Shown here piece by piece: positions 13,579 through 57,838 of a DNA stretch of 64,000 nucleotides. The first letter of the stretch is position 1. Every line of letters starts with the position of its first letter. The position numbers were made by a program, and so were the translations under genes. The notes beneath the pieces were generated by a model. That model was not told the origin of the DNA. It searched no databases and was given only the letters and a program-made list of their open reading frames with translations. Origin of the DNA: a bacterium (GTDB lineage: Bacteria > Cyanobacteriota > Vampirovibrionia > Gastranaerophilales > Gastranaerophilaceae); contig JAFVDH010000004.1 of the NCBI GenBank assembly GCA_017478515.1, positions 172-64,171 on the forward strand, in the 5' to 3' direction.

Positions 13579-15012
13579 ATGTTTTTTAATTCAATACAAT
13601 TTATATTTCTATTTTTGCCGATTACTTTAATCGTTTATTTTGCATTAAATAAATTTCGTTTATTAAAAATTGCTGCAGGATGGCTTGTCGGGGCATCTTT
13701 GTTTTTCTATTCATATTGGAATATCAAGTATCTGCCGTTAATTTTGGCAAGTATTACTTTTAATTATCTTATCGGACAAACTCTTCTTTCGACGGACAGG
13801 CTTAAAATAAATAAAAAAGCCTTAGTTTTATTCGGAATTATTGGTAATGTCGGACTTCTTATTTATTTTAAATACTTTAACTTTCTGATTGAAAATATCA
13901 ATATTATTTTTCATCAGCAGTTTGATTTTATGAAGTTGATGCTTCCTTTAGCAATAAGCTTTTTTACTTTCCAGCAAATTGCATACCTTGTTGATACTTA
14001 TAAGGGTAAAACAAAAGAGTGTGATTTTCTGACTTACGCTTTATTTGTTTGTTTCTTCCCTCATTTGATATCAGGGCCTATAGTAAGATTTGATGAAGAA
14101 GTTCCTCAGTTTTTAAATATAAGAAAACGTGTTGTTAATTGGAAAAACTTATCAAAAGGGTTATTTTTATTTGCAATAGGCTTATTTAAAAAAGTGATTA
14201 TGGCAGATTTGTTCTCAAAGGCTGCTTTGGTCGGGTTTTCTGATGCCCTAAATTTATCTATGCTTGAGGCGTGGATAGTTATATTCAGCTATACATTCCA
14301 AATATTTTTCGATTTTTCGGGCTATACCGATATGGCAAGAGGTATCGGTTTAATGTTTAACATTGATATAGCTCAAAACTTTAACAATCCTTATATCGCA
14401 AAGGATATACAGGAATTTTGGAGAAGATGGCATATGACACTGTCAAGATGGCTGAAAGATTATATCTATATTCCTCTTGGCGGCAACAGACACGGAAATT
14501 TTAATACCTACAAAAATCTGTTCTTAACTTTTTTAATCGGCGGTATCTGGCATGGTGCAAATTTGACATTTATTGTGTGGGGCATTATGCACGGTGTTGG
14601 TTCTGTTATAAACCGTTTTTGGAAAAATCTTAATAAGTCTATACCAAATTGGTTCTGCTGGGCTTTAACTTTTGCTTATGTTAATGTTGCTTGGCTTTAT
14701 TTTGGTGCGAAAAAAGTCGCCGATGCTAATAATATTCTATTAACGGCTGTAAATCCTTTGACTTTTGATATACCTAAAATTTATTTTCCTGCCGTAAAAT
14801 TTAGAGCAACAGGACATAGTTATGATATATTCGGAATTATTCTTATAGCTTTGGCTGTATACTTTATATTCAATGACGGGTTCAGAAAATTTGCGGATAA
14901 TTTTAAACCTCAAGCTAAATATGCGGTTTTTATCGTAGTTTTATTGTTAGTTGTTGTTTATAATCTTGTGAAACCTGATTATTCATCATCATTTATTTAT
15001 TTTAATTTCTAG
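13579..15012 (+). CDS. MBOAT family membrane O-acyltransferase (AlgI/DltB-like)
   Basis: FDFSGYTDMA, FWRRWHMTLSRWL, GGIWHGAN motifs; multi-pass. Confidence 0.85.
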   Translation: MFFNSIQFIFLFLPITLIVYFALNKFRLLKIAAGWLVGASLFFYSYWNIKYLPLILASITFNYLIGQTLLSTDRLKINKKALVLFGIIGNVGLLIYFKYFNFLIENINIIFHQQFDFMKLMLPLAISFFTFQQIAYLVDTYKGKTKECDFLTYALFVCFFPHLISGPIVRFDEEVPQFLNIRKRVVNWKNLSKGLFLFAIGLFKKVIMADLFSKAALVGFSDALNLSMLEAWIVIFSYTFQIFFDFSGYTDMARGIGLMFNIDIAQNFNNPYIAKDIQEFWRRWHMTLSRWLKDYIYIPLGGNRHGNFNTYKNLFLTFLIGGIWHGANLTFIVWGIMHGVGSVINRFWKNLNKSIPNWFCWALTFAYVNVAWLYFGAKKVADANNILLTAVNPLTFDIPKIYFPAVKFRATGHSYDIFGIILIALAVYFIFNDGFRKFADNFKPQAKYAVFIVVLLLVVVYNLVKPDYSSSFIYFNF

Positions 15013-15036
15013 GAGCATAACGGAAGAACACACATT

Positions 15037-16029
15037 ATGAAAGAATACAAAACATTTTTTATAAAAACTTTAATTATATTTTTTGCACTGCTTGTACTAA
15101 TTCCTGCTGTGTTAATAACTGCGGGAGATTTTTTTGCGGGGAAATATGTTTACTCAAAAGCTGCCGCTCATATAAGATATTGGATTGATGCAAAGCAAAA
15201 TAGGGCAGATATTTTAAACAAAAAAGGAAATAAAATAGTCTTTTTATCAGGTTCAAGTTTAATGTACGGGTTTAACTCAAAATACGCATACGAAAAAACA
15301 GGTTTGCCTGTCTTAAATCTGGGCATCCATGCAGCGTTTGGAAGTTATATTTATAATATTGCAAAACACGTTTTAAAAGATGGCGATATTGTTGTTCTTG
15401 CACTTGAATGTCCTTATTATGAAGAAGAGAAAGAGTCTAATATTCAAGGCCCTTTTGCTGAATACATTATTTCTTATGACAATGATTACTACAAAAAATC
15501 TGACTTAAAGAAAAAATTTGGTCTTGCTATGTTTTTGTTTCAACAATATATAATGCATCCGAATATTCCGAAAGAAAAAGTTTTGGTAGATGAAGATTAC
15601 AAAAAACAGGTAAATGATTTTGGGGATTTTGTCGGAAATAATGAGACTACCGAACTTTTTAAATCCCATGCCAAGCCTCAGGTGATTACTGAAAATATTC
15701 CTGAAAAATATGATGAATATCCGCTTTATAATTTTATAAAGTATTGCAGAGAACATGATATTACGGTTTATGCGATTATGCCTGTAATGTATCATTCTAA
15801 AACATTTACGCCAGAAGAAGAAATTGCTTATAAACATATAAGAGATTTTTATAAAAAACAGGGTGTATATTTTATTGGTGATATAAAATCGGGAAGTTTG
15901 TATGATGTAAATTTTTTCCACGATACGAGTGCTCATGCAAATACTAATGGTGCTAAAATCAGAACGGATTGGATAATTGATAATGTTCTGTCAAGACCTG
16001 AAATTTATTCAATTAACAAAAATAAATAG
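15037..16029 (+). CDS. Membrane-anchored SGNH/DltD-like partner of the MBOAT enzyme
   Basis: N-terminal TM segment, FLSGSS (block I-like) and FHDTSAHAN (block V-like). Sits directly downstream of the MBOAT gene. Confidence 0.45.
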   Translation: MKEYKTFFIKTLIIFFALLVLIPAVLITAGDFFAGKYVYSKAAAHIRYWIDAKQNRADILNKKGNKIVFLSGSSLMYGFNSKYAYEKTGLPVLNLGIHAAFGSYIYNIAKHVLKDGDIVVLALECPYYEEEKESNIQGPFAEYIISYDNDYYKKSDLKKKFGLAMFLFQQYIMHPNIPKEKVLVDEDYKKQVNDFGDFVGNNETTELFKSHAKPQVITENIPEKYDEYPLYNFIKYCREHDITVYAIMPVMYHSKTFTPEEEIAYKHIRDFYKKQGVYFIGDIKSGSLYDVNFFHDTSAHANTNGAKIRTDWIIDNVLSRPEIYSINKNK

Positions 16030-16037
16030 GATAAAAC

Positions 16038-16203
16038 ATGAATATCATTAAACTCTTTAAAAATTTAACAGCTCCAAAAAATGGCTGTAAATCAAAAATT
16101 AAGGGCAAAAATAATGTTATTAAATGTTAAAACAACGCAAAGACAACTTTAAAAATTATTTGTACAGTCCGAAAATCCTACAAAATTGTTAAAAGAAATA
16201 TAA
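16038..16203 (+). pseudogene. Decayed acetyltransferase remnant (N-terminal 30 codons and a separate C-terminal ..ENPTKLLKEI piece)
   Basis: Short ORF MNIIKLF..GKNNVIKC*, followed out of context by ..SENPTKLLKEI*. This resembles the GNPAKxIK C-termini seen at 11262 and 11899. Confidence 0.35.
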
Positions 16204-24233: not shown

Positions 24234-24361
24234 AAATTTGTAGGCAGGACGGGATGCTCCCAAAAGGAGAAAAAGCCCTCTTGCCGAAACCAATTGAGTC
24301 GGTAAAACCGAAAGTATAAAATGTTTATCGGTGAATTATTGGTAGAATTTAATAATAAAGT

Positions 24362-24379
24362 GGAATTGTAGCTCAGTTT
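24362..24379 (+). repeat. Direct partial copy of the tRNA-Asp 5' end (17/18 nt)
   Basis: ggaattgtagctcagttt vs gggattgtagctcagttt at 24463-24480. Confidence 0.8.
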
Positions 24380-24439: not shown

Positions 24440-24462
24440 TAGATAAAATTAAATAGTAATAT

Positions 24463-24540
24463 GGGATTGTAGCTCAGTTTGGTTAGAGTGTCTGCCTGTC
24501 ACGCAGAAGGTCGCGAGTTCGAGCCTCGTCAGTCCCGCCA
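24463..24540 (+). tRNA. tRNA-Asp (GTC), CCA encoded
   Basis: Cloverleaf read by eye: acceptor gggattg/cagtccc, anticodon loop cctGTCac, T-loop gttcgag, 3' gcca. Confidence 0.9.
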
Positions 24541-33152: not shown

Positions 33153-33340
33153 TTGAATATTCTCCTTTTTATTATTTTATCACAATCTGTTGTTATATTT
33201 TTTGTAATCATTTTTAATCAACAGCTGCTATCTATTAAATAATTACAATATTTTTAAACCAAAATGAATATATTACCAAAATATAAAAGGTTTTATTTTT
33301 GTAAGTAAAATTTAGAACATATTGTCAAAAAAGAAATGTA

Positions 33341-33571
33341 TTAAGAAATATTGCAAATCTGAAGAATGCTGCCAATACGGAGTTGTGGCGATTTGAAACA
33401 AAAATGTTAACTTTTGTAAATATGAATTTTAAAATGGCTGAAACTCAAGTATAATGCCCTATATGATATGATATGATATGATGGGATGGGGATACTAAAG
33501 TCTTTTGACCATGTTGCCGACATGAAAAGTGTTAGGACAAAGCAATATAGGAAAGTCAAAGGAATAAAACA
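33341..33571 (+). repeat. Upstream cassette copy 1 (homologous to 52794..53016)
   Basis: By-eye alignment. About 90% identity from acttttgtaaatatg (33409) to the ATG, with one 10-bp indel near the RBS. Weaker similarity for ~70 bp further upstream. Confidence 0.85.
33496..33523 (+). promoter_or_regulatory. FliA/sigma-28-like promoter TAAAGTCT-N12-GCCGACAT
   Basis: Compare the consensus TAAAGTTT-N11-GCCGATAA. Lies 48 nt upstream of the ATG at 33572 and is conserved in the second cassette. Confidence 0.45.
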
Positions 33572-34174
33572 ATGGGTATTTCAGCAAATCAGGCAAGATT
33601 AATGACGTTAACAGCAAGACAACATGATTTAGAGTTAAGAGCTCAACAGATTTCTGCAAAAAAAATGGTTCTATCTCTGCAATCTCAACAATTTGCTACT
33701 GCTTATTCCGCTTCATTAAACGAATATAGTCTTATGAAAAATGGCTCTTCTACTGTAGAATATGTAACTGAGACTGAATCTGTGGTAACAGGTTATGAAT
33801 ATGATGGTGTGACTTATTCTGATATAATGGATATTCCTTATAAAACTGTGGTTACCGGTAAAGATGATGATGGTAATGAAATAACTGAAGAGCAGCCAAG
33901 AACTGCTGATGATGAAGGTGTTACAGTTTTGACAGAGGATATTCCTACAGAATATGCTACTCGTAATTATACTGATGAAGAAACGTCAAGTTTCTTGAGT
34001 ATTACTAAGGGCAATTATGATAGTGCAATGACTGCTCTATCGACTCAAGAAAAAATTATGGATATGGAATTAACTCAAATTAATACTGAGCATCAGGCTG
34101 TTAAAACCGAATATGATTCTCTAAAATCATTGATAGGTGATAATGTTGATAAATCATTTAATATTTTCGGATAA
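33572..34174 (+). CDS. Hypothetical 200-aa protein: helical Gln/Leu-rich termini around an acidic Thr/Glu/Asp-rich centre; no signal peptide
   Basis: ORF directly after the cassette, with RBS aaaggaa. Confidence 0.6.
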   Translation: MGISANQARLMTLTARQHDLELRAQQISAKKMVLSLQSQQFATAYSASLNEYSLMKNGSSTVEYVTETESVVTGYEYDGVTYSDIMDIPYKTVVTGKDDDGNEITEEQPRTADDEGVTVLTEDIPTEYATRNYTDEETSSFLSITKGNYDSAMTALSTQEKIMDMELTQINTEHQAVKTEYDSLKSLIGDNVDKSFNIFG

Positions 34175-34305
34175 TTAGTATGATTTATTCCTATTATTAA
34201 AAAAATTGTTTAAAATATTTGAATAAATATATAAAAATAGTGTATTTTTCGTTGTGGTTTTGTGATTTATGAATATTAGAATTTTTATGCTAAAATTTTA
34301 ATATT

Positions 34306-45464: not shown

Positions 45465-45914
45465 ATGTTTGATATTGAATTGCAGGGTTTGGATAAAGAC
45501 GGAAATGAAAAAACATATAAGTTGGCTGATTTTAAAGGCGAAAGAGTTCTTTTATATTTTTATCCGAAAGATAACACATCAGGCTGTACTCAAGAGGCAT
45601 GCGATTTTAGAGATAATATCAACAGGCTTACAAATTATACGGTAGTTATCGGTGTCAGCCCTGACAGCATAAAAAGCCATAAGTCGTTTAAAGAAAAGCA
45701 AAATCTGAATTTTATACTTCTTTCTGACCCTGAACATAAATTGGCTGAAAAATTAAATGTTTGGGTTGAAAAATCTATGTATGGCAGAAAATATATGGGT
45801 ATTGATCGTTCTACTTTTGTTTTGGATAAGGATTTGAGTATTGAAAAAGAGTGGCGAAAAGTTAAAGTAAAAGGGCATGTTGATGAAGTTATTGATTATA
45901 TTTTAAATAACTAG
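45465..45914 (+). CDS. bcp: Peroxiredoxin, Bcp type
   Basis: FYPKDNTSGCTQEAC (peroxidatic Cys plus a resolving Cys 5 residues later). Confidence 0.9.
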   Translation: MFDIELQGLDKDGNEKTYKLADFKGERVLLYFYPKDNTSGCTQEACDFRDNINRLTNYTVVIGVSPDSIKSHKSFKEKQNLNFILLSDPEHKLAEKLNVWVEKSMYGRKYMGIDRSTFVLDKDLSIEKEWRKVKVKGHVDEVIDYILNN

Positions 45915-45929
45915 AATTTTAAAAATATT

Positions 45930-45975
45930 AAAAAGCAGGGCGGTTACTCATTTATGAGTAACCGCCCTGCTTTTT
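45930..45975. terminator. Bidirectional terminator: 22-bp perfect palindrome between convergent bcp and recombinase genes
   Basis: aaaaagcagggcggttactcat tt atgagtaaccgccctgcttttt, with A/T runs on both sides. Confidence 0.8.
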
Positions 45976-45977
45976 AC

Positions 45978-46784
45978 TTACCAATTAACGATGCTATCTA
46001 TTATTTTTCGTTGTTCTGTACTTGTTTTTCTTAAATATATTCTTGTCGTTTCTATGCTTTCATGTCCCATTAAATCTGCCAGAAACGCTATGTCGTTACA
46101 TCTGTCTAAAAAACTTTTTGCAAATCTATGTCTGAATGAATGAGGATACACTACTGCGGGGTCAATTCCATACTTTCTAGCTAATTTCTTTAATAATCCG
46201 GCTATTCCTCGTGTTGTTATTTGCTTTCCATATTTATTCAAAAATATAAAACCGCTTACTTGTTCTGTATTTACAAACCAATCCAGGGCTTCATCCTGAA
46301 GCTTTTTCGGTATATATATCCTTCGCAGCTTCCCGCCTTTGGAGTACAAATCTAAGTGACCGATTTTTATGTGTTCAACTTTTATTTGAACTAATTCGCT
46401 TACTCTCGCTCCTGTTGCGGCTAAAAACCTTATAACAAAATAACAAAACATTTCTTTATCTTTTTTTAAGCATGTTTTGAAATATGTATAATCTGCTTCG
46501 CTTATTACATTTTCCAAAAATGTCTTTTGCTGTATTCTTACAAACGGTAGTTTTAAGTCTGACCTTCCGATACTCTCTAAATAAACATTCATCGCCCTCA
46601 GCCGTAAGTTTACTGTTTTGGGTTTAAAATTCTCAATGAGCCAAATCTTGTAGGACCGAAGATTTTTTTTGTTTACCTCATGAAATTGTACCTGGTACTG
46701 TTTTAGGGAAAAAACGTAGGACCGAATGGTGTTTGAGGCTAAGTTGGCCTCTTTCTGTTTCTTTTCAAATTCTTTGATGTTCAT
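45978..46784 (-). CDS. Tyrosine site-specific recombinase (phage-integrase family), short 268-aa form
   Basis: ATGARVSEL (Arg), HSFRHRFA (HxxR), GHESIETTRIY (His/Tyr). Confidence 0.85.
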   Translation of the reverse strand: MNIKEFEKKQKEANLASNTIRSYVFSLKQYQVQFHEVNKKNLRSYKIWLIENFKPKTVNLRLRAMNVYLESIGRSDLKLPFVRIQQKTFLENVISEADYTYFKTCLKKDKEMFCYFVIRFLAATGARVSELVQIKVEHIKIGHLDLYSKGGKLRRIYIPKKLQDEALDWFVNTEQVSGFIFLNKYGKQITTRGIAGLLKKLARKYGIDPAVVYPHSFRHRFAKSFLDRCNDIAFLADLMGHESIETTRIYLRKTSTEQRKIIDSIVNW

Positions 46785-46927
46785 GGCATCTGCCTCCTTT
46801 CGCTAATATAATAAACAATTTTTTTGCAGCGAAATTCAATGTTTTTTCTGTATTACATATTTCTCTCAAAGTATTTTGAAAAGTTTGTTTTAGTCCTATA
46901 TTTATGCTTAAAAATTTTAATAAAAAA

Positions 46928-49243
46928 TTACAAATTCATTGAGATTGTTAGTATATTTTTTCCGTCCTTGTAGTCGTAATCAACTTTATCCATGGATTGT
47001 TTTACCATATATATTCCAAGTCCTCCGATTTGGCGGTCTTCTGTTGATAATGTTATATCAGGGTCTTCCTGATTTAGCGGATTGAATTGTTTACCTTTGT
47101 CATAAAATGCTATACTGATGTCTTTTTCCGTCTGGGTAATAGAAACTTCTATCGCTTTTGTCTCATCTTGTTCATAGCCGTATTTTACTATGTTTGTAAA
47201 AATTTCTTCTGTGCAAATAAGCATTCTTGTAAGTTTTGTCCCCTCAAAGCCTAATTTATTACAAATGTTTTCAACTCTGCTTGTTAATTCGGGCAATGCT
47301 GATATTACAGACGGCAGTTCAAAGTTGTAATATCCTTTGTATTCCAGTGTTAGCATCGTTATGTCATCAGGCAATCCGTGTTCTGCTGATTTTGAATATT
47401 CTTTTATTTCATTGTTTACGTCATCTAAAAGTTCGTTAATGTTTGATGCATTATATTTATCTAAGCACATTTTGATACCTTCTTCTCCAAATAAATTTCC
47501 GAATTCGTCAATTACGTCTGTAAGTCCGTCCGTGTATAAGAATAATTTATCGTTTGGCATAAGTGTCATTTCTTCCGATTTGAATTTTGTGTCAGGCATT
47601 CCTCCTAAAACAAAATTTTGATTACAGGTTATTTTTTCATAATTTCCGTTTTTTCTTTTTATAAATGGCGGATTATGACCTGCACTCAGGTATTTTAATG
47701 TTCCTGTAGAAAGTTCAAGTGTACAGAAAAATGCCGTTACAAAAAGACCTTGTTCATTATTCTGGCAAAGTTCCTTATTAACCTGTTCAAACAGTTGTTC
47801 TAAGGTTATTTCTGTTTTTGCGATATTCTTTATTACGGCTTTTGCTTTCATCATAAATAGTGCCGCAGGAATACCTTTCCCTGATACGTCTGCTATCAAA
47901 AATGCAAGCGTATCGTCGTTTAAAAAGAAGAAATCGTAAAAATCTCCGCCTACTTCTCTGGCTGTTTCCATTGTTGCGTATATATCAAATTCTTTATGCT
48001 GCGGAAACGCAGGAAATCTGTTCGGCATTGCTGTTTTTTGAATTTCTTTTGCGATTTTTAGTTCAAATTCTGCTTGTTTTTTTTCTTTTATGTAACCGTC
48101 TAAAGTTTCGATGTATTGTTTAATTTCTTCGGATGTGTTGTTTAATGTATTTGCAAGTAGTGCAAATTCTTCGGGCTTTTCTATGTTTACTACCGAATCA
48201 AGGTTTCCTCGTCCGATTTCTTCTGCTGTTTTTACCAGCATTTTTATCGGTTTGTTTATATTTTTTGTTAAAAATAAGTAAATAAGTATGCATACACCTA
48301 TATAAAATGTTATTAATGCAAATATTAAAAATGCTACTTCAAATCCTAAAAATTTGAACATTTCTTTTTTAGGTACGAAAATTGTTACTTCCATACCGTT
48401 TTCTTCGCTTAGGATAAATGTTATATACTTTTTGTTGTTATAGGTTATTTCTTCCCCTGATTGCAAATCTGTTCTAAACATTGGGATGTTATTCAAAGAT
48501 TTGCCCGTAAGTTTTTTATTTTCGCTGTAATAGAAAATAAAATCGTTTTTTTCGTTTGAAAAAATTACTATGCTATGTTTTGGTAATTTAAAATTCTTAA
48601 GTTTTTGAATAAAGTTGGCTACTTTCCAGTCTACATGAACAATTCCAACCAATGAAGAATCATTATCATAAATTCCTCTTCCACAGGCGAGCATTAAGTC
48701 TTGTGAAAAATTCACAGGTTCGTTTTTTGCTACCACGCATGACATTGTTCCGGCTTCAGCGTTCAATATCTTATCTCTTAATTCTCTATACCATATTCGT
48801 TCAAGATAATTATATTTCAGCTCTTTTAGGTCTTCAATATCATAGATTCTGTTTATGTCAAAATATGCCGCAAGTTCTTTTGTGTTCGGGTAAACTTCGT
48901 ATGGCTCATACCATATTCCGCCTGTGTTAACTTCGTCGGTGTTAATGATTGATTTACTGTTTTTAAAAACATCTTCTACGAGGTTGTTTAATTTAGAAAT
49001 AGGGCCGTTATAGATATAATAAAGCTTTCCCCGTTCTGATAATTCCGTTGCAACAAGTTTTAGGCAGATTAATGCCCGGTGCATGTCTGTATCTATGTCT
49101 TCCAGTCTGAATTTTAGTTCTTCTATCTGATTTTTTTTGCCTGTTTCGTACGCAATATTAATTAATCCTATTGTTACTGTTGAGAGTACAACCAGAAAGA
49201 TTAATGTGATACAAATGATTTTGGATTTTATTGTTCTAAGCAT
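46928..49243 (-). CDS. Sensor partner-switching enzyme: TM-Cache-like-TM-HAMP-PP2C (SpoIIE/RsbU) phosphatase fused to a C-terminal RsbW/SpoIIAB-type HATPase kinase domain
   Basis: HAMP (KPIKMLVKTAEEIGRGNLD). PP2C motifs GGDFYDFF, ADVSGKG, TDGLTD, DDITML. C-terminus EEIFTNIVKYGY...IGGLGIYMVK. Confidence 0.85.
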   Translation of the reverse strand: MLRTIKSKIICITLIFLVVLSTVTIGLINIAYETGKKNQIEELKFRLEDIDTDMHRALICLKLVATELSERGKLYYIYNGPISKLNNLVEDVFKNSKSIINTDEVNTGGIWYEPYEVYPNTKELAAYFDINRIYDIEDLKELKYNYLERIWYRELRDKILNAEAGTMSCVVAKNEPVNFSQDLMLACGRGIYDNDSSLVGIVHVDWKVANFIQKLKNFKLPKHSIVIFSNEKNDFIFYYSENKKLTGKSLNNIPMFRTDLQSGEEITYNNKKYITFILSEENGMEVTIFVPKKEMFKFLGFEVAFLIFALITFYIGVCILIYLFLTKNINKPIKMLVKTAEEIGRGNLDSVVNIEKPEEFALLANTLNNTSEEIKQYIETLDGYIKEKKQAEFELKIAKEIQKTAMPNRFPAFPQHKEFDIYATMETAREVGGDFYDFFFLNDDTLAFLIADVSGKGIPAALFMMKAKAVIKNIAKTEITLEQLFEQVNKELCQNNEQGLFVTAFFCTLELSTGTLKYLSAGHNPPFIKRKNGNYEKITCNQNFVLGGMPDTKFKSEEMTLMPNDKLFLYTDGLTDVIDEFGNLFGEEGIKMCLDKYNASNINELLDDVNNEIKEYSKSAEHGLPDDITMLTLEYKGYYNFELPSVISALPELTSRVENICNKLGFEGTKLTRMLICTEEIFTNIVKYGYEQDETKAIEVSITQTEKDISIAFYDKGKQFNPLNQEDPDITLSTEDRQIGGLGIYMVKQSMDKVDYDYKDGKNILTISMNL

Positions 49244-49538
49244 TTTCTATTGTCAAAATTTTGCTGAAACCTGTCATATTAAATACGTCCATAACGGATT
49301 CATTTGCATTTATTATTTTCATAACTCCTTGAGACAGCATTCTTTTTTGAAGTTCTAATATGGCTCTCAACCCTAAACTTGAGATGTATTCAACATTTTC
49401 AAAATTGAGAATTAAATCTGTTATATTATCTAACGTGTCGTTGACTTGTTCTCCAAATTCCATCGCTGTATTGGTGTCAATTCTTCCGTCTACGTTAATA
49501 ACTACTGTTGAACCGTATTTTTTTGAAGTTATATTCAT
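49236..49538 (-). CDS. STAS-domain anti-sigma-factor antagonist (SpoIIAA/RsbV-like)
   Basis: VEYISSLGLRAIL contains the phosphorylatable Ser context. Start set at MNITSKK (49538). Overlaps the downstream phosphatase-kinase gene by 8 nt. Confidence 0.8.
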   Translation of the reverse strand: MNITSKKYGSTVVINVDGRIDTNTAMEFGEQVNDTLDNITDLILNFENVEYISSLGLRAILELQKRMLSQGVMKIINANESVMDVFNMTGFSKILTIENA

Positions 49539-49660
49539 CAAGTTTCTCCAAGGTTTATTTTTCTTAAGTATAGCACGTAAATTAAATTGAAACAACTTGT
49601 TTAAACTTGCGTATTTATTTTTATTGTATAATCAAAATGTAAATATTAGGAGGAGTTAAA

Positions 49661-50170
49661 ATGATTAATGAAAAATTAGAAAAGGCTTTTAATGATCAGA
49701 TTAATAAAGAATTGTATTCGGCGTATCTTTATTTGACAATGAAAGCTAAGTTTGCAGAAATGAATTTAAACGGTTTTGTAAATTGGTTTGATGTTCAAGT
49801 GAAAGAAGAACAAGCTCATGGAATGGGTATGTATGATTATGTTATTGAAAGAGGCGGAAAAATAGAATTGTCGGCTATTGATAAACCTGAATTAAAGGGT
49901 TCAACACCGTTAGAAATTTTTGAACAGGTATTGGAACATGAAGAATATGTAACCTCAAGAATAAATGCGTTAATGGATGTAGCAGAAGAAACAAAAGACA
50001 GAGCAGCTTTATCATTTTTAGATTGGTACTTAAAAGAACAAGTAGAAGAAGAATCAAACGTAGGCGGTGTATTAGCTACTTTAAAATTAATAGGTGATGA
50101 TAAAAAAGCTCTATTAATATTGGATAAAGACCTTGCTGCAAGAGTTTTTAATCCTCCTGTAATCGGTTAA
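49661..50170 (+). CDS. Non-haem ferritin
   Basis: ELYSAYLYL, EEQAHGM, LEHEEYVT ferroxidase-site residues. GGAGG RBS. Confidence 0.9.
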   Translation: MINEKLEKAFNDQINKELYSAYLYLTMKAKFAEMNLNGFVNWFDVQVKEEQAHGMGMYDYVIERGGKIELSAIDKPELKGSTPLEIFEQVLEHEEYVTSRINALMDVAEETKDRAALSFLDWYLKEQVEEESNVGGVLATLKLIGDDKKALLILDKDLAARVFNPPVIG

Positions 50171-50195
50171 AATCAAAAATAAATATAAATAAAAT

Positions 50196-50231
50196 GGATG
50201 ACTAAAAACTAAAACGGTCATCCTTTTTTTT
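50196..50231 (+). terminator. Rho-independent terminator after the ferritin gene
   Basis: ggatgac...gtcatcc followed by T8. Confidence 0.7.
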
Positions 50232-50253
50232 AGCTCTCTATTAATAAAATTCG

Positions 50254-51732
50254 TTATTGATACATAACGTTCAAAAATTCATTGCTAACAGCATCTCTGT
50301 ACCATTTTGCATGGTCTGATGTGTTAAAAATATTGTTATAGTGGCTTGCAACATCGCCGTATGTAGATTTGTTTTCGCCGTATTCCATTAATTCGTGGGT
50401 ATTTTTAGCATATGGAGATGTTGGGAAAATGTCGTGCATCTGCATATAAGACGGCAATCTCCAACCTGCGTCACGATGTCCGTTAAACGCATTTTTAATT
50501 CTTGTTAATCTTTGCTCCAAAGACATTTGGCAATTATCATTATCGTCAGAAATTACAGGCCCTGCTGCGTATTCATCATTCCATGATTGTTTGTCATATT
50601 CATGAAGAATATTGTTAAAGTCGTCGGCTCTTCCCCAGTCGTTGCCTGCTGATAAACCCATTTCTCTGTTTCTTGGGTGCATATCGCATTTTTCGCCTAC
50701 AAGAGCTATGTCATTTCTTCCTGTTTTACTTTTTATTTGTTGAGTAATGTACTGCATTTGTTTGAAATTAGGAACTTCTCCAACTCCGCAGTAATAATGC
50801 ATTTCATGGTTTCCAACGTGCTTTGCACTGTCAAAGAATATTGCGTCAAATCCTAAGTCAACTGCCCAACAGCATGCATCTATAAATGCTTTTTCATGCT
50901 TGTACCAGTTAAAAGGTTCTCCTTTAACGGTCATTTGGCCTGCTGATAGAGGCATTCTGATACCTGTTTTTAATCCTCTTAAGTGAGCCATGTCATTAAA
51001 TGCTTTTACTTGTTCATCGTCACCCATTCTTTGTCCGTCACGGCAAAGCTTATCTGAAGTTAGATTTTTCGAAATTCCTGAATGCAAATCTACAGTATAT
51101 AGTGAAGAACGGCCTGTCTTTCCGTCATTTTCTCTGTTCATTGCAGGATATAATTGTGATAAAACTACGCAATTAGCAAAGCTTTTAGGTGATGGCGGGA
51201 TTGCAGGTAGTAATTTCATTACATTTAATAACCCCTCGCTTTTTTTGTCGCCTTCTGTTAATGCAACGGTTCTCGGGTTAATTTCTATATAATTTGCACG
51301 TCTTCCCCATTTGTCACCATAGTTTGGAGTTTGTATATTATTCGGAATTTCCGGATAATGGTCATTTTTCTTTGTTAATGTGCATATTGACTGAATGGCA
51401 TCCATTGGCGAGCGTTTCAAAAGATTTTCCGGGTTTTCGTTAACCCATTTTTTCCATCCTGTATTACCGCCTTTATATAATGTTTTGTATGTTTCCTGGT
51501 CTTCGTAAACATCATTGTTGCCTTTTAGTATCCAAAACAGTTTCTTGGCAGGGTTTTTATCTCCGTAGTATCCTTTAAAGTTTACTAATTGTTTGTTGTA
51601 ATTTGCAGAAAGTTCCAATGCTGATGCCGAAGTAGGTTTAACTGCTTTTGGTGCAATAGGATTTGAAGTCTTTTTGCTTATTACCGGCATTATGTTTGGC
51701 ATATACAAACTTTGGATTGCAGAAACTTTCAT
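50254..51732 (-). CDS. 492-aa protein with a divergent alpha-amylase-superfamily (GH13-like) core; N-terminus MKVSAIQS, no signal peptide
   Basis: GFDAIFFDSAKHV resembles GH13 region II (GFRxDxxKH). AHLRGLKTGIRMPLS resembles region I context. IALVGEKCD may be region III. The ORF itself is solid; the function call is weak. Confidence 0.45.
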   Translation of the reverse strand: MKVSAIQSLYMPNIMPVISKKTSNPIAPKAVKPTSASALELSANYNKQLVNFKGYYGDKNPAKKLFWILKGNNDVYEDQETYKTLYKGGNTGWKKWVNENPENLLKRSPMDAIQSICTLTKKNDHYPEIPNNIQTPNYGDKWGRRANYIEINPRTVALTEGDKKSEGLLNVMKLLPAIPPSPKSFANCVVLSQLYPAMNRENDGKTGRSSLYTVDLHSGISKNLTSDKLCRDGQRMGDDEQVKAFNDMAHLRGLKTGIRMPLSAGQMTVKGEPFNWYKHEKAFIDACCWAVDLGFDAIFFDSAKHVGNHEMHYYCGVGEVPNFKQMQYITQQIKSKTGRNDIALVGEKCDMHPRNREMGLSAGNDWGRADDFNNILHEYDKQSWNDEYAAGPVISDDNDNCQMSLEQRLTRIKNAFNGHRDAGWRLPSYMQMHDIFPTSPYAKNTHELMEYGENKSTYGDVASHYNNIFNTSDHAKWYRDAVSNEFLNVMYQ

Positions 51733-51769
51733 ACTTGGTTTAATGTCCCTAAAAATTTATATTGCCATG

Positions 51770-51796
51770 TTTTAGGCGTTTTTTTACAATACTTTA
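51770..51796 (-). promoter_or_regulatory. Weak sigma-28-like match TAAAGTAT-N11-GCCTAAAA upstream of the GH13-like gene
   Basis: -10 element matches 6/8. The downstream leader shares ggcaatataaa with cassette copy 2. Confidence 0.25.
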
Positions 51797-51930
51797 CAGT
51801 TGCTTTTACTCTTTGAAAAAAGCTTTTTTATTTCTTATTTACAACTGATGTGTTTAATATATTGTAAATACAATACTCTGAGAAATCAGGGAAGAGTGGA
51901 AACCTAAAGCCAGCCTTGCTTTGATAACAA

Positions 51931-52695
51931 TTGCTTATGCTGGCAAAATTTGTTGACGTGTTAAATACATCTATTGCAAATGTTGCTCTTAAATATATGG
52001 CAGGAAGTTTCTCTATTTCTGATGATGAAAGTCTTTGGATAGTAACAATTTTTTTTATATCATGCATCGTATTACTTCCTGAAACAAAGTGGTGTTGTAA
52101 AGTTTTTGGCAGAAAGAGGTTCTTTTTATTCTGTTTATATTTCTAAATTGGAACTTACCAGTTTAAGTTCATTTCTTTTGCTTTGGGTTGTTTTGTGTTT
52201 TTAAATTTAAATTTGATGTTTGCGTTTGGAAATGTTATAATTCCTAATTTGATTGTTTGATTGTTCTTTTTGTTATGACTATGATAATTATTCCTACGAT
52301 TACGATTATTTTTTTTTGATTTATCCAATCAAGAAATGGCAAATGCGTCTACTTTACAGAATCTTATTAAAAATGTAGGATGTGCCATCGGAACTTTGTC
52401 TGTATGTGTATTTGTATCTCGATATTCTAAGGTATACCAATCATATCTTGTCGATAAACTCTCTTTGTTAAATGATGCTTTTGTCGGAAAATTTACTGCA
52501 TTAGCAATGAATTTCGCTAAAAACGGAGCTGATTTTATATCTGCTCAAAATATGTCAGGTGCGATGCTTTATAACCAACTTATACAACAGTCGGCTCTTT
52601 GTGCATTTATGCATACTTATATGATTTATGCAATTATTATGCTGATTATTTCTGCTATGGTTTTGATATTAAAAAAAGTTAGGTATGATAATTAA
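51931..52695 (+). pseudogene. Decayed EmrB/QacA-type MFS efflux transporter (N-terminal ~70 aa and C-terminal ~120 aa survive; central TMs lost or scrambled)
   Basis: FVDVLNTSIANVALKYMAGSFSISDDESLWIVT..FGRKRFF matches the EmrB N-terminus. 52336..52695 matches the last TMs. The region between has stops in every frame. Confidence 0.7.
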
Positions 52696-52793
52696 AAAGT
52701 AAACATAATTGTGCATTGACAATGGAAATATTACTTAATACTAAAGAGCGTGTTAATGTTGTCCTGACTTCCAATTCTAAAACAGGAATTTTG

Positions 52794-53016
52794 TTAAGAA
52801 ATGTTACAAACTTGAAAACTGTTGTAAATACTGTAGCACAGCGATTTCTAATAAAATTGTAAACTTTTGTAAATATGGATTTTAAAATGGCTGAAACTCA
52901 GTTATAATCACCTATATGATATGATATGATATGATGGGATGGGGAGTACTAAAGCTTTTTGACCATATTGCCGACATGAAAAGTGTTAGGAATAAGGCAA
53001 TATAAAGGAGAAAACA
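52794..53016 (+). repeat. Upstream cassette copy 2 (homologous to 33341..33571)
   Basis: See copy 1. TATAAT at 52903-52908, pentamer tract at 52915-52944. Confidence 0.85.
52950..52977 (+). promoter_or_regulatory. FliA/sigma-28-like promoter TAAAGCTT-N12-GCCGACAT
   Basis: Same geometry as 33496..33523. Lies 39 nt upstream of the ATG at 53017. Confidence 0.45.
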
Positions 53017-54162
53017 ATGACTTTAGTATCAAAAATGATGAATGTTCGTGAAAATGTGGTTTTAGGTAGTCTTAATTTAAAAAACACTCCAATAAATAAT
53101 CAACCAGCTACTACAAATACATCCGAAACACCTCAATCAAAAGATGATGTTGATTTAGTAGTTATAACAGGAAAAGACGATAATATAGAAGGAGCTTTAG
53201 GAAATTTATTATCAAATAATGATTCTCTTATAGACAGAATTGCATCAAAATTGAATGGGCTTTTTGGAGCTGAAAAAGCTGAAAAACAAGATCGTGGTAC
53301 AGAAGCTGTTAGAGATTATCAAGTCTTAACCGATGAACAACTTGCAGCAGAAATGGAAGAATTACTTAAAAAGAAAGCTGACATAAAACAACAAATTGCT
53401 GAATGTAAAGCAGATACTAGTATTCCATATTCAAGGAACCTAAAAGCAATTGATTTAGAAAAACAATTGAACCAAATAGAAACAGAGATAAAAGCGTGTG
53501 AAGAAGAAATGAATAGAAGAAGCAACTCTTCAAACTCTTCATCTCCGTCAGGTCTACAAAACCTTTCTAATTCTTCGGAGTTAGTAGTTGAAACAGGACA
53601 TTGGAAAAATCTTAGTGTATCTGAGCTTATTCAAGAATATAAAGAACAAGTCCAAGCTAAGCTAAAAGACTTACAAAGACAACTTGATGAAGCTAAAACT
53701 GCCAAAAGTGAAGCGGAAAGTAATGGATTATCAACAAAGTTAACAATGATTATTAATGCTAAGATAGCTGTATTAACTGCAAAAATAAATAGTTATAGTG
53801 GTATAATTCAACAATATAACAGTGAATTAGAAAGAAGAGGTTCGAATATACGTATTCAAGACGATGGAAGTATAATGGGAACACTTGAAAACAGTAATAA
53901 GCCTGAATTGAATAATGATATGAAAAATTTAAGTCCTCTATGTTCTATGTCTACAGATGAGCTTAAATCAAAACATGAAGAATTAGTTAAAAAGCAAGAA
54001 GAATTGGAAAAACAACTTGATGCTGCTAAATCTAAAATTAGTAATAATGCAAAAGAAAATGTACTTAATCATTTTGAAATACATAATTTAACAAAGCAAT
54101 TAGAACATATAAAAACTGAAATAAAAGAAATAGAAGATGAACTTGCAAGAAGAGACTCTTAA
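53017..54162 (+). CDS. 381-aa coiled-coil protein with three ~70-80-aa internal repeats, FlxA-like in composition; no signal peptide
   Basis: Repeats start near YQVLTDEQL, WKNLSVSEL and LCSMSTDEL. Each ends in ..E(M/L)xRR(S/G/D)S. AAGGAG RBS. Confidence 0.6.
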   Translation: MTLVSKMMNVRENVVLGSLNLKNTPINNQPATTNTSETPQSKDDVDLVVITGKDDNIEGALGNLLSNNDSLIDRIASKLNGLFGAEKAEKQDRGTEAVRDYQVLTDEQLAAEMEELLKKKADIKQQIAECKADTSIPYSRNLKAIDLEKQLNQIETEIKACEEEMNRRSNSSNSSSPSGLQNLSNSSELVVETGHWKNLSVSELIQEYKEQVQAKLKDLQRQLDEAKTAKSEAESNGLSTKLTMIINAKIAVLTAKINSYSGIIQQYNSELERRGSNIRIQDDGSIMGTLENSNKPELNNDMKNLSPLCSMSTDELKSKHEELVKKQEELEKQLDAAKSKISNNAKENVLNHFEIHNLTKQLEHIKTEIKEIEDELARRDS

Positions 54163-54238
54163 TCATAAGAACCAGACGGACTATCATTGATAGAACAGGC
54201 TTTATATACTTAAAAAGTATGCTTTACAAAATAACTTA

Positions 54239-54290
54239 ACGGGTATCTTATTAAAAAGAGGATGACTTTTTTGTCACCCTCTTTACCCGT
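54239..54290. terminator. Compound hairpin between convergent genes (possible bidirectional terminator)
   Basis: Outer acgggta/tacccgt stem and inner gaggatgac-tttttt-gtcaccctc stem (one mismatch). Flanking T-runs are modest. Confidence 0.45.
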
Positions 54291-54320
54291 ACCAAATTTA
54301 AGCTGTTTTGTACCCGTTTT

Positions 54321-54656
54321 TTAAAATTCTACATAGCTTAAACCCAGTGTTAGCAATGAAATAACCAATGCTCCGAAAAATGCACTCCAAAAACCGCTTA
54401 CTGTAAAGCCAGGTACAAGATATGCCACAAACATAAGCAGCAAAGCATTAATTATTAGTGCAAAAATTCCTAACGTAAAAATATTAACCGGCAAAGTAAT
54501 TAAGTTTAATAATGGTTTTAATACTGTGTTAATCAAGGCTATTACCGCTGCTGTAAGCATCGCAATCGGTATACTTGAAACAGTTATTCCCGGTATAATC
54601 CATGCCGTAAATAAAACTATTACCGTTAGAACAATAAATTGGAATAATAAATACAT
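54321..54656 (-). CDS. DUF360 / phage holin family IV-type 4-TM membrane protein
   Basis: IIPGITVSS..LINTVLKPLL..LTLPV..LGIFALIINALLL..VPGFTVSGFW pattern. Confidence 0.75.
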   Translation of the reverse strand: MYLLFQFIVLTVIVLFTAWIIPGITVSSIPIAMLTAAVIALINTVLKPLLNLITLPVNIFTLGIFALIINALLLMFVAYLVPGFTVSGFWSAFFGALVISLLTLGLSYVEF

Positions 54657-54775
54657 GACAAAACTCCTTTTTTAAGACTTTTTTATTATATGGAATTTTT
54701 ATTTTCAGAACATTAGATAAATTGATAATTTTTTATTAAACCTTTTATTTATTTTTATGTTATACTAACGGAGTT

Positions 54776-55711
54776 ATGTTACATGAAATTTTAACTAATC
54801 AGGCAATATTAGCTCCTCAGATAGAGTACTTAGTGTTTTTGCAAAACTTAAGAACTCCTGAGTTGGATGTGGTATTTTTAAACATAACAAAATTGGCAGA
54901 GTCTATTGTGCCGTACATATTTGTTAGTTTATGCTATTGGCTTATCGATAAGAAATCAGGATTTATATTATTTACAGCTTTACAGCTTGGAATGATGACA
55001 AAAGATTTATTGAAAGAACTTGCCTTTGTAAAAAGACCTTGGATTTTATCAGATAAAGTAGAACCTGTAAAGGCTGCTGTTGCACATGCCCCCGGATATT
55101 CTTTCCCAAGCGGGCACACCGTAAGAGGTATTACTGCTATTTCCGGCATTTCTATTGCAACATGGAAAAATAAATTTTTAAGTTTGTTTTTTATTTTACT
55201 AGGTTTTGCTGTTTTGTTTTCAAGAAATTATTTAGGGGTTCATACTCCGCAAGATGTTATTATAGGTTGTTTGTTTTCTATAATATATATATTTACTGTA
55301 AGCAAATTTATTAATTGGATTGATAAAAAAGAAAAAGGTTATTTGATTTTTGGCGGAGCTGTTTTGGTGCTCGCAGTTTTGGTTGTGTCTTGTATTTTGT
55401 CAGGAATAATAAAAGAAGAGATTATGTCATATTATAGTGAATTGACTTTATTGGCCGGTGTATGCTTGGGTTATTATGTTGATAAAAAATATATAAAGTA
55501 TGAAGTTCCTAAAACTCAATGGTATATCAAATTTATTGTTGCTATAATCGGGATTATTTGCATGTATACCTTAACTCATGCTATTTACTTTGCTGTATCA
55601 GGAACTTTTTTTGATTTATATAAACGAGTTATTTTATACTTTTTCTTAAGTATATTTTCTACAATAATTTATCCTATAGTTATTAAAATGTGTATTAAAA
55701 ATCGTGTGTAA
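54776..55711 (+). CDS. PAP2-family membrane phosphatase
   Basis: KELAFVKRPW, SFPSGHT, SRNYLGVHTPQD (all three acid-phosphatase motifs). Confidence 0.8.
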   Translation: MLHEILTNQAILAPQIEYLVFLQNLRTPELDVVFLNITKLAESIVPYIFVSLCYWLIDKKSGFILFTALQLGMMTKDLLKELAFVKRPWILSDKVEPVKAAVAHAPGYSFPSGHTVRGITAISGISIATWKNKFLSLFFILLGFAVLFSRNYLGVHTPQDVIIGCLFSIIYIFTVSKFINWIDKKEKGYLIFGGAVLVLAVLVVSCILSGIIKEEIMSYYSELTLLAGVCLGYYVDKKYIKYEVPKTQWYIKFIVAIIGIICMYTLTHAIYFAVSGTFFDLYKRVILYFFLSIFSTIIYPIVIKMCIKNRV

Positions 55712-55809
55712 ATGTAAATATTTTGTAAAATTTACACTTGATTTGGCAATTATTTTTTTTACAGGGCTTAAAATAAACATATGAAGACATGTGTAGGAAG
55801 GTAAGATTA

Positions 55810-57504: not shown

Positions 57505-57529
57505 ATTTTAAAATACCAAATTTAACAAC

Positions 57530-57565
57530 AAAGACAACGCATTTTTGTAAAAATGCGTTGTCTTT
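57530..57565. terminator. Bidirectional terminator hairpin
   Basis: aaagacaacgcattttt-gt-aaaaatgcgttgtcttt, a 17-bp perfect stem between convergent genes. Confidence 0.7.
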
Positions 57566-57594
57566 GTTTAATTTAATTTAAAGACTAATTATTG

Positions 57595-57756
57595 TTATCC
57601 GATAAAGCCTCCGCCTGCGTTAGAAAGGCCTTTAGTTTTCTTTTCTTCAATTTCAGGCTTTTTATCAGTTTCTACCTTTGGATTAATAGGTGCTTTATCT
57701 TCTTCTTTTTTTATTTGAGGTTTTACCTGTGGAAGATTGCCGCTAATGCTACTCAT
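57595..57756 (-). CDS. Unlisted 53-codon ORF: MSSISGNLPQVKPQIKKEEDKAPINPKVETDKKPEIEEKKTKGLSNAGGGFIG
   Basis: Strong RBS (gaaaggag, 7 nt before the ATG), a sigma-28-like promoter upstream and a terminator downstream. Below the ORF-track length cut-off. The overlapping + strand ORF 57592..57831 starts with TTG and is low-complexity. Confidence 0.45.
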   Translation of the reverse strand: MSSISGNLPQVKPQIKKEEDKAPINPKVETDKKPEIEEKKTKGLSNAGGGFIG

Positions 57757-57810
57757 AACATACTCCTTTCTTTTTTACATTTAAATATTCTTTTTATGAT
57801 ATTAAATGTA

Positions 57811-57838
57811 TTAACGGCAAAAATCTTTTAAATCTTTA
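57811..57838 (-). promoter_or_regulatory. FliA/sigma-28-like promoter TAAAGATT-N12-GCCGTTAA
   Basis: Reverse complement of 57811-57838. Same -35/-10 spacing as the two cassette promoters. 54-nt leader to the 53-codon ORF. Confidence 0.35.

Follow-up and report, generated by a model that had tools for sequence, protein, structure and literature searches.

What do promoters of the sigma-28 (FliA/SigD) type control in a gut bacterium when the genes behind them are not recognisably flagellar? The question is raised by three sites in a 64-kb stretch of contig JAFVDH010000004.1 (hereafter the window; about 31% GC, both strands being considered for the positions of the sites), which belongs to a gut or rumen Melainabacterium of Gastranaerophilales-like affiliation. 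The consensus of the class III flagellar promoters read by FliA in E. coli is TAAAGTTT-N11-GCCGATAA, and that of SigD in B. subtilis is TAAA-N15-GCCGATAT. An original prediction, made from the letters of the window, had proposed that the three sites define a mini-regulon of orphan genes. Its core, namely that sigma-28-type promoters mark uncharacterised, non-flagellar genes, is upheld by comparative evidence: the motif is conserved before homologues of the site-1 gene in other genomes, a distant homologue of the site-2 gene has a site of its own, site 3 is a conserved island in a diverged relative, and the same signature precedes flagellin and FlgM genes. We consider it likely, on the sequence comparisons given below, that the three sites are promoters for a sigma-28-family (FliA/SigD/WhiG-type) alternative sigma factor, which would drive a dispersed regulon dominated by a very large superfamily of predicted helical-hairpin proteins.

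The three arrangements are present as described: TAAAGTCT-N12-GCCGACAT at 33496-33523 (+), TAAAGCTT-N12-GCCGACAT at 52950-52977 (+) and TAAAGATT-N12-GCCGTTAA at 57811-57838 (-). Each is followed by an open reading frame (ORF) with a good ribosome-binding site, the distance from the -10 element to the ATG being 48, 39 and 54 nucleotides (nt) at sites 1, 2 and 3, with Shine-Dalgarno sequences of the AGGA/GGAG kind. All three -35 elements (CTAAAGTCT, CTAAAGCTT and CTAAAGATT) resemble TAAAGTTT, all three spacers conform to a length of about 11-12 nt, and the -10 elements of sites 1 and 2 resemble GCCGATAA and contain its CGA core, in a variant (GCCGACAT) that recurs at three other loci (L011, L013 and L054). 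The pattern as originally written gives three matches in the window against 0.01 expected; it had been chosen after the sites were seen, and we therefore built an independent weight matrix, trained on 16 sites from other genomes and none from the window, and restricted to the -35 and -10 blocks. With this matrix sites 1, 2 and 3 scored 23.6, 23.7 and 22.3 bits and were the top three matches in the window, the next-best match at 12-nt spacing reaching 13.1 bits and, with the spacer left free over 10-14 nt, the next-best matches reaching 17.2 and 15.5 bits. In a first-order Markov simulation 0.01 matches of at least 22 bits were expected per 64 kb. The matrix found no other match in the window comparable to the three sites, in place of the two comparable matches without a downstream gene that had been listed, and it led us to reject a supposed weak fourth site (51770-51796, -), which scored less than 12 bits. 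The geometry is indeed the same at all three sites (N12), but sites 1 and 2 are copies of one duplicated block and are not independent; because both lie inside that block, the geometry common to them was inherited and is not convergent. An origin by chance in AT-rich DNA, the caveat of the original prediction itself, would draw on the frequency of TAAA at 31% GC, on the fact that sites 1 and 2 are a single event and on the deviant -10 element of site 3; set against three matches where about 0.01 is expected, and against the conservation of the motif across genomes, chance seems to us extremely improbable, and for sites 1 and 2 it is effectively refuted.

Conservation was followed through the protein of 200 amino acids (aa) encoded behind site 1. 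Its homologues come from metagenome-assembled genomes of gut and rumen that are labelled Candidatus Melainabacteria, Cyanobacteria bacterium UBA791 / UBA6984 or uncultured bacterium RUG, and two homologue-bearing bins labelled Methanobacteriaceae and Muribaculaceae are probably mislabelled; each genome has 3-5 paralogues. All of the 16 full-length homologues in other genomes are preceded by YTAAAGTTT-N12-GCCGATA(A/T), with a few GTCGATA or ACCGATT variants, at either 71-83 nt or 143-151 nt from the ATG, and among the family sites found by protein homology GT(T/A)AGG follows exactly 8 nt after GCCGATA in 15/16. The flanks around the motif are otherwise unrelated between the size classes of family genes. 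When distant paralogues of 116-572 aa and three separately checked loci are included, a strong site precedes 23 of the 25 genome-derived family genes at 70-150 nt from the ATG (one of these, L009, with an 11-nt spacer), a count that covers seven other bins, six of them labelled Melainabacteria, Cyanobacteria or uncultured bacterium and one Methanobacteriaceae. The family consensus can be written as YTAAAGTTT-N11/12-GCCGATAW, usually followed by GTWAGG at a fixed distance. A 123-aa paralogue, probably of the same organism and found in the sample series that also yielded window-identical loci, has a site of perfect consensus (30.6 bits). One further locus (L030) was discarded as uninformative for comparison, being 100% identical to the window.

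Whether this format is that of sigma-28 was addressed by a metagenome scan with the composite signature TAAAGNTT-N12-KCCGAYA-N8-GTWAGG, in which the GTWAGG box was obligatory and which returned at least 120 loci. Among the matches listed, the signature precedes canonical flagellin genes (tblastn with probes for the N- and C-termini of FliC) in contigs of 0.41-0.47 GC (many with a human-gut label), and it precedes 92-aa proteins in contigs of the same GC range, one of which was tested and matched Pfam FlgM at 6e-19; the spacer of these flagellin and FlgM promoters is also N12. Flagellin and FlgM are two classic sigma-28/SigD targets, and because the signature, including its 12-nt spacer, stands before their genes, it represents a genuine sigma-28 promoter format. 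Among the matches listed, the 39 in contigs of low GC (0.27-0.38) were sorted by the gene downstream. Branches of the hairpin superfamily account for 20/39, a second recurrent family of about 135-145 aa (MALNVSYVQQYYQGID...AIKFLKTKAAE) for 9/39, MTTMNSFSGLAKL... proteins standing behind a near-copy of the site-2 block of the window for 3/39, a homologue of the 381-aa protein encoded behind site 2 for 1/39 and an unrelated 104-aa ORF for 1/39, while in 5/39 there was no ORF or the contig ended. The second family (loci L044, L046, L048, L052, L063, L069, L078, L084 and L104) has no Pfam match and no copy in the window. Strong sites (22-31 bits) were also observed at L154 612-640(-), at L010 69-97 and 241-269(-) and at L011 27-55 and 195-223(-), in tandem in the latter two; the L154 site lies about 120 nt upstream of a NAD kinase gene and is co-oriented with it, and those of L010 and L011 are at the edge of the locus. 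These sites may have housekeeping targets or may lie ahead of an unannotated small gene.

Several observations weigh against a sigma-28 regulon in this organism. Neither fliA nor flgM, flagellin or csrA was detected in DNA of low GC attributable to Melainabacteria within the sequence covered, about 1.4 Mb in all (some 20 kb around each family gene), which was searched with approximate probes; the matches of the fliA, flagellin and csrA probes were all in contigs of higher GC, except for one flagellin in L109 (GC 0.36) that is probably not from a Melainabacterium. The sole sigma factor gene near one of the paralogues is RpoD-like and not FliA, the 64-kb window contains no flagellar or chemotaxis genes, and family genes were never linked to flagellar genes in the loci examined. 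The two exceptions among the 25 family genes belong here as well: L021 has the -10 element only, its -35 element being degenerate, and L020 (9452-10177; in the bin labelled Muribaculaceae) has no sigma-28 site at all. At the latter locus GTTAGGAGG is found directly at the ribosome-binding site and a tRNA gene is adjacent. To these points are added the excess conservation of the block around sites 1 and 2 and the aberrant features of site 3, both of which are described below. A literature search found no paper on fliA or on sigma-28 promoters in Melainabacteria, and the supplements of two genome papers did not contain the terms fliA, flgM or csrA.

A variant of our explanation would account for part of this pattern: a sigma-28-family factor uncoupled from flagella might run a surface or secreted, developmental or host-associated programme. 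Flagellar gene sets of Melainabacteria are related to those of Firmicutes and Spirochaetes (PMC3787301; PMC4040986; bioRxiv 10.64898/2026.04.24.720558), and they are complete in about 25% of the Gastranaerophilales and partial in the rest (bioRxiv 10.64898/2026.04.24.720558). Those without complete flagella retain flhB, fliI and flgG, possibly for secretion (bioRxiv 10.64898/2026.04.24.720558; PMC4040986), which would fit a programme free of flagella, as would the lack of linkage between family genes and flagellar genes and the fact that no low-GC flagellin or FlgM attributable to Melainabacteria is among the signature matches listed, the GTWAGG box being obligatory in that scan. The same scan, with its at least 120 loci and its obligatory box, could however easily miss flagellar promoters of Melainabacteria, and flagellated Melainabacteria with canonical flagellins exist (PMC3787301). 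We regard the uncoupled programme as possible but less likely than not; it does not contradict a sigma-28 regulon in general.

Sites 1 and 2 are embedded in a portable module (Table 1). The core blocks of its two copies in the window (33388-33542 and 52841-52996) are about 90% identical with a 1-nt indel, a weaker similarity extends upstream to about position 33340, and the ORFs behind them, of 200 and 381 aa, are unrelated. Copies of the core block that are at least 93% identical stand before different genes in L045, L070 and L085; in all, five copies are known, for besides the pair in the window one rumen contig has two and a further contig has one, and their flanks differ. Copying has placed the module before genes that are unrelated to each other. 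Two insertions of the window, each comprising a module copy and the gene behind it, are absent from L151, a relative that is otherwise collinear with the window at 82-89% nucleotide identity, and L153, from the same metagenome sample as L151, carries the site-1 module together with a family gene at a different chromosomal position, the similarity to the window starting abruptly about 230 nt upstream of the ATG, near window position 33340. Because of these absences and of the relocation in L153, promoter-plus-gene cassettes are gained, lost or moved between close relatives.

Table 1. Promoters, module elements, genes and insertions located in the 64-kb window
Feature	Position	Strand	Remarks
Site 1, sigma-28-type promoter	33495-33523	+	-35 CTAAAGTCT at 33495-33503; -10 GCCGACAT at 33516-33523; 12-nt spacer
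Site 2, sigma-28-type promoter	52949-52977	+	-35 CTAAAGCTT; -10 GCCGACAT at 52970-52977
Site 3, sigma-28-like promoter	57811-57839	-	CTAAAGATT-N12-GCCGTTAA
Regulatory module copy 1, about 230 nt	33340-33571	+	distal part 33340-33387 moderately conserved; core 33388-33542 nearly identical in five copies
Regulatory module copy 2, core block	52841-52996	+	duplicated within the window
Sigma-70-like TTTAAA-16-TATAAT, possible tandem promoter	33428-33455	+	consensus scan, 10/12 positions; TATAAT at 33449-33454
Sigma-70-like element in module copy 2	52881-52908	+	consensus scan
(ATATG)4 tract just upstream of -35	33461-33480; also 52914-52933	+	four units in other copies, five in L085
GTTAGG box, site 1	33531-33536	+	first of three GGA motifs; exactly 8 nt after GCCGACA
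GTTAGG box, site 2	52985-52990	+	
Gene for 200-aa hairpin superfamily member	33572-34174	+	invariant N- and C-terminal helices, variable middle
Gene for 381-aa coiled-coil repeat protein	53017-54162	+	nearly species-specific
53-aa ORF behind site 3	57595-57756	-	strong Shine-Dalgarno
Bidirectional terminator hairpin	57527-57568		19-bp stem; closes site-3 unit and convergent 571-aa gene
Strain-specific insertion	33238-34251	+	module copy 1 and 200-aa gene; absent from L151
Strain-specific insertion	51800-54317	+	119-aa ORF, module copy 2 and 381-aa gene; absent from L151

The block is conserved for about 100 nt beyond what a promoter needs, and because of this excess the module must do more than bind sigma-28. 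One could go further and give the 150-230 nt block some other main role, in which its sigma-28 boxes would be incidental: it might, for instance, be a small RNA, a mobile repeat or a sigma-70 promoter whose 5' untranslated region is structured or bound by protein. The identity of at least 93% over about 150 nt in five copies, where a promoter needs about 30 nt, speaks for such a role, as do the conserved TTTAAA-16-TATAAT inside the block and its association with insertions and relocations. This reading is weakened, however, because the family genes that lack the block (the 300-aa, 400-570-aa and 123-aa classes) share upstream only the sigma-28 motif, often together with GTWAGG; moreover, terminal inverted repeats were not reported for the block, folding predictions give unstructured leaders, and an Rfam scan of the window returned three tRNAs and nothing at the block. 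We consider it improbable. As a particular form of mobile repeat, an element resembling a miniature inverted-repeat transposable element was rejected for the 150-nt block: no inverted-repeat arms were reported, and the five copies and that of L153 all lie directly upstream of genes and are co-oriented with them.

If the boxes are thus read as sigma-28 promoters, several further elements of the module may contribute to regulation. The TTTAAA-16-TATAAT element is conserved in all copies of the block, and sigma-70-like matches are not enriched relative to shuffled sequence; it is a candidate second promoter. The (ATATG)n tract may act as a slipped-strand switch that alters the phasing between the promoter and upstream elements, giving on/off switching. 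In the 116-186-aa classes (L014-L018 and L002-L007) a palindrome, AAACCATG-N5-CATGGAGTTT, lies directly against the -35 element, at about 25 nt on its upstream side, and ATGATGGGATGGGGA in the window (33475-33494) resembles a diverged form of it, whereas the 300-aa class has TGTAAC-N4-TGTAAC in its place; the palindrome and the TGTAAC repeats are probably binding sites for additional regulators. The GTTAGG box is predicted to contain the transcription start and with it the 5' end of the leader. Each leader contains two or three GGA motifs, and the Shine-Dalgarno sequence holds one of these; short leaders are predicted to be weakly folded and largely unstructured, and long leaders have a covarying hairpin with AGGGG in the loop. 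By analogy with the CsrA-controlled leaders of flagellin mRNAs a CsrA-like control is possible, and matches to an approximate CsrA probe occurred only in loci of 0.45-0.47 GC.

Site 3 differs from the two module-borne sites. Its -10 element, GCCGTTAA, reads CCGTTA and not CCGATA and so departs from the CGA core, with a T in place of the A that the 16 training sites and the other strong matches share without exception, and no GTTAGG box follows it. The 53-aa ORF behind it matches two protein clusters, one at 100% (IJ818_00635) and one at 89% identity, and has no Pfam match. The 89% relative comes from L151/L152, where the intergenic region is 70% identical with large indels and where the counterpart of site 3 has an 11-nt spacer, a -10 element ACCGTTAT with a different first base and a leader about 90 nt longer. 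From the deviant base, the missing box and this divergence one might conclude that site 3 is no functional sigma-28 promoter, but a decayed or weak one, or one for another factor. Yet only two matches in the 64 kb score higher, no other part of the diverged intergenic region is as well conserved as its core (CTAAAGATTT.AAA.AT.TTT.CCGTTA forming the best-conserved island), and promoter, Shine-Dalgarno sequence, ORF and terminator together make up a well-ordered unit. On its sequence features we think it rather probable that site 3 functions as a sigma-28 promoter, and its non-function correspondingly doubtful. A 25-bit site was also seen before a conserved 53-aa ORF (MNMLRKIELPTTNIDNSVEFILRGAKKRRS...) at L003 3377-3405(-) and L006 3319-3347(-), which is unrelated to the 53-aa ORF of the window.

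The gene behind site 2 had been described as FlxA-like in composition, a label that finds no support: the 381-aa protein matches no Pfam family at E<=0.01 (PF14282 included), and its sole NCBIfam match is a weak coiled-coil one. In a word-indexed search of 5.8 billion proteins it finds only itself. A homologue (32% identity over 274 aa, E=1e-11) is encoded by the low-GC locus L126, and because this gene has its own sigma-28 site with a different spacer, it provides independent support for site 2. Exact-match look-ups returned no record for the 381-aa protein, for the 571-aa protein or for P0009.

The gene behind site 1 had been described as an orphan, but it is one of several paralogues per genome in a superfamily of at least 3,200 clusters, and the regulon can hardly be called mini. 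The 200-aa protein has more than 120 close relatives; at the threshold E<=1e-3 an exhaustive profile search returned 3,212 representative clusters for it, a number that falls to 1,713 at E<=1e-10. The best 150 profile matches range in length over 79-956 aa; full-length members align from residue 1, and matches to the C-terminal profile block stop at the C-terminus or within a few residues of it. Family alignments show a near-invariant N-terminal segment of about 50 aa, MG[ILV][AS]ANQARLMTLTARQHDLELRAQQIS..., and a near-invariant C-terminal segment of about 50 aa, ...EKLLDMELTQINTEH.AVKTEYDS.KSLI.DNV.KSFN.FG, between which lies a hypervariable insert, the insert at the tip ranging from 0 to more than 800 aa. 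AlphaFold2 models the 200-aa protein as an antiparallel two-helix hairpin (residues 3-56 and 135-199, predicted local distance difference test above 95) and predicts helices 2-52 and 62-122 in the minimal 123-aa member. No relative was found for any tested size class of the superfamily in searches of Pfam, NCBIfam and PDB sequences, and Foldseek searches with the two AlphaFold2 models gave no match at E<=0.001, the matches returned being generic alpha-hairpins (such as V-ATPase stalk, prefoldin, PspA/Vipp1, Lamassu, Lap and YscO). The original statement that the downstream genes are not recognisably flagellar or chemotactic was correct, no such gene being present in the window and nothing meaningful being returned for the three downstream proteins from Pfam, NCBIfam or PDB sequences. 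Family genes are dispersed and monocistronic and stand amid housekeeping genes.

Like flagellin (FliC/Hag), the family combines conserved, packed terminal helices with a hypervariable centre, and it shares with flagellin genes the occurrence of paralogues, the sigma-28 promoter and a GGA-rich leader. It differs in having neither Flagellin_N nor Flagellin_C and in its core, a predicted two-helix hairpin of about 120 aa instead of the four-helix D0/D1 core, and an identification of the family as flagellin was rejected: no size class has a Pfam match, hhalign gave 0.5%, and in the Foldseek search the flagellin core appeared at rank 37 with E=2.5. We tentatively suggest that the superfamily comprises unrecognised sigma-28-controlled proteins that are exported or self-assembling, perhaps cargo or filament subunits of a flagellar type III apparatus or its remnant, although we would regard this assignment as less probable than its alternatives. 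The MK[IV]N N-termini of neighbouring proteins were considered as an export signal; this idea was weakened by a CobA/BtuR enzyme with the same N-terminus. The 123-aa paralogue P0113 (L026/L027) has as neighbours two genes for ATPases (PilT-like and PilB/MshE-like), one for a pilin-like N_methyl protein and those of a histidine kinase/response regulator pair (7907-9013, 14699-16093 and 831-1472), a linkage to type IV pili that may be coincidental.

Taken as a mechanism, these elements would operate as follows. A sigma factor, which the promoter sequences would place in the sigma-28 family, would contact the -35 element YTAAAGTTT and the -10 element GCCGATAW, 11-12 nt apart, and transcription would start about 7-8 nt downstream of the -10 element, at the GTWAGG box. 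The output would be a set of short monocistronic mRNAs, the main targets being the large, dispersed, multi-copy hairpin superfamily and the minor ones the coiled-coil repeat protein (site 2) and the 53-aa peptide (site 3). Sites 1 and 2 would be carried by the portable module of 150-230 nt, with its sigma-70-like promoter, its variable (ATATG)n tract and a conserved element immediately next to the -35. The invariant terminal helices of the hairpin proteins might serve as an export and assembly core, perhaps via a retained flagellar type III apparatus, and the hypervariable tips might be exposed and diversify under pressure from host, phage or competitors. By analogy with known systems, the hairpin proteins could then be exported or surface subunits that are co-regulated with the flagellar type III apparatus or its remnant.

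In comparison with FliA/SigD class III promoters, the sites have the same -35 and -10 octamers with the CGA core and lie 40-150 nt before monocistronic genes, whereas the spacer is usually 12 and not 11 nt and the targets are not flagellar or chemotactic; in addition there is the GTWAGG box at a fixed distance and, in some classes, the CCATG-N5-CATGG palindrome abutting the -35. In C. jejuni the sigma-28-dependent Feds, FspA and FlaC are co-expressed with flagella and some of them are secreted via the flagellar type III apparatus (PMC9856085). This set (PMC9856085) is the nearest functional analogue of the regulon, an analogy of regulation only: in both cases small proteins dispensable for motility, or their counterparts here, stand under sigma-28 promoters in a gut bacterium. 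In the C. jejuni set FspA varies between strains and FlaC has flagellin-like termini without the middle; the family described here differs by its at least 3,200 clusters, its several copies per genome and the extreme conservation of its termini.

Sigma-28-family factors are also known from non-flagellar programmes, namely WhiG of Streptomyces and sigma-28 of Chlamydia, whose target is hctB. Both are FliA-type factors with a similar consensus that serve non-motility genes, as in the present case; their programmes are, however, developmental and small, and we saw no sign of development here. As for the leaders, B. subtilis, Campylobacter and spirochaetes have a flagellin mRNA leader that is under the control of CsrA and FliW. 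Leaders of the present family are likewise short, with two or three GGA motifs of which one is at the Shine-Dalgarno sequence, and the long class presents AGGGG in a loop, but neither csrA nor fliW was found in the low-GC DNA examined with approximate probes, and the likeness is a lead only.

Other features of the window are reported for completeness. The 492-aa gene at 50254-51732, which had been labelled GH13-like, has no match in Pfam or NCBIfam, alpha-amylase models included. It belongs to a cluster of unannotated, secreted-hydrolase-like genes (50254-51732(-), 55789-57504(+), 57933-58841(-) and 61018-62679(-)), none of which has a sigma-28 site; two of the proteins have calpain-like Cys motifs, IGDCYLVS (with a weak Peptidase_C2 match) and AGDCWLLAEMNS, and a 553-aa protein has a HELGH zinc-protease motif, its homologues adjoining hairpin-family genes in L019, L024 and L025. 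A segment of 17 kb (45471-62765) is inverted relative to L151, with a gene for a tyrosine recombinase (Phage_integrase) at one border (45978-46784), and nothing in the L151 locus, which spans 20 kb, corresponds to the part of the window at 37.4-45.4 kb, where tRNA-Arg (43715) lies. At 46928-49595 (-) a HAMP-SpoIIE(PP2C)-HATPase_c_2 fusion with an RsbW-like kinase domain is accompanied by a STAS anti-sigma antagonist; this partner-switching pair could regulate an alternative sigma factor. Finally, the 5' end of tRNA-Asp (GGAATTGTAGCTCAGTTT) lies within a direct repeat (24343-24379 and 24444-24480), of which the second copy alone was called as a tRNA; the first could be an undetected tRNA or what remains of one.

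The kind of promoter described here is itself well known; what is new is the lineage, the portable regulatory module and a main target family that is so large and so anonymous. The sigma-28 promoters act as a pointer to a very large unannotated superfamily, and to at least two further unknown families, in a widespread but little-understood group of gut symbionts. The 150-230 nt module provides an example of the growth of a regulon through the copying of a promoter cassette before new genes. The conservation pattern of the superfamily resembles that of subunits of filaments or of secretion substrates, and if the hairpin proteins were indeed cargo, this would bear on why most Gastranaerophilales keep part of the flagellar export machinery without a flagellum.

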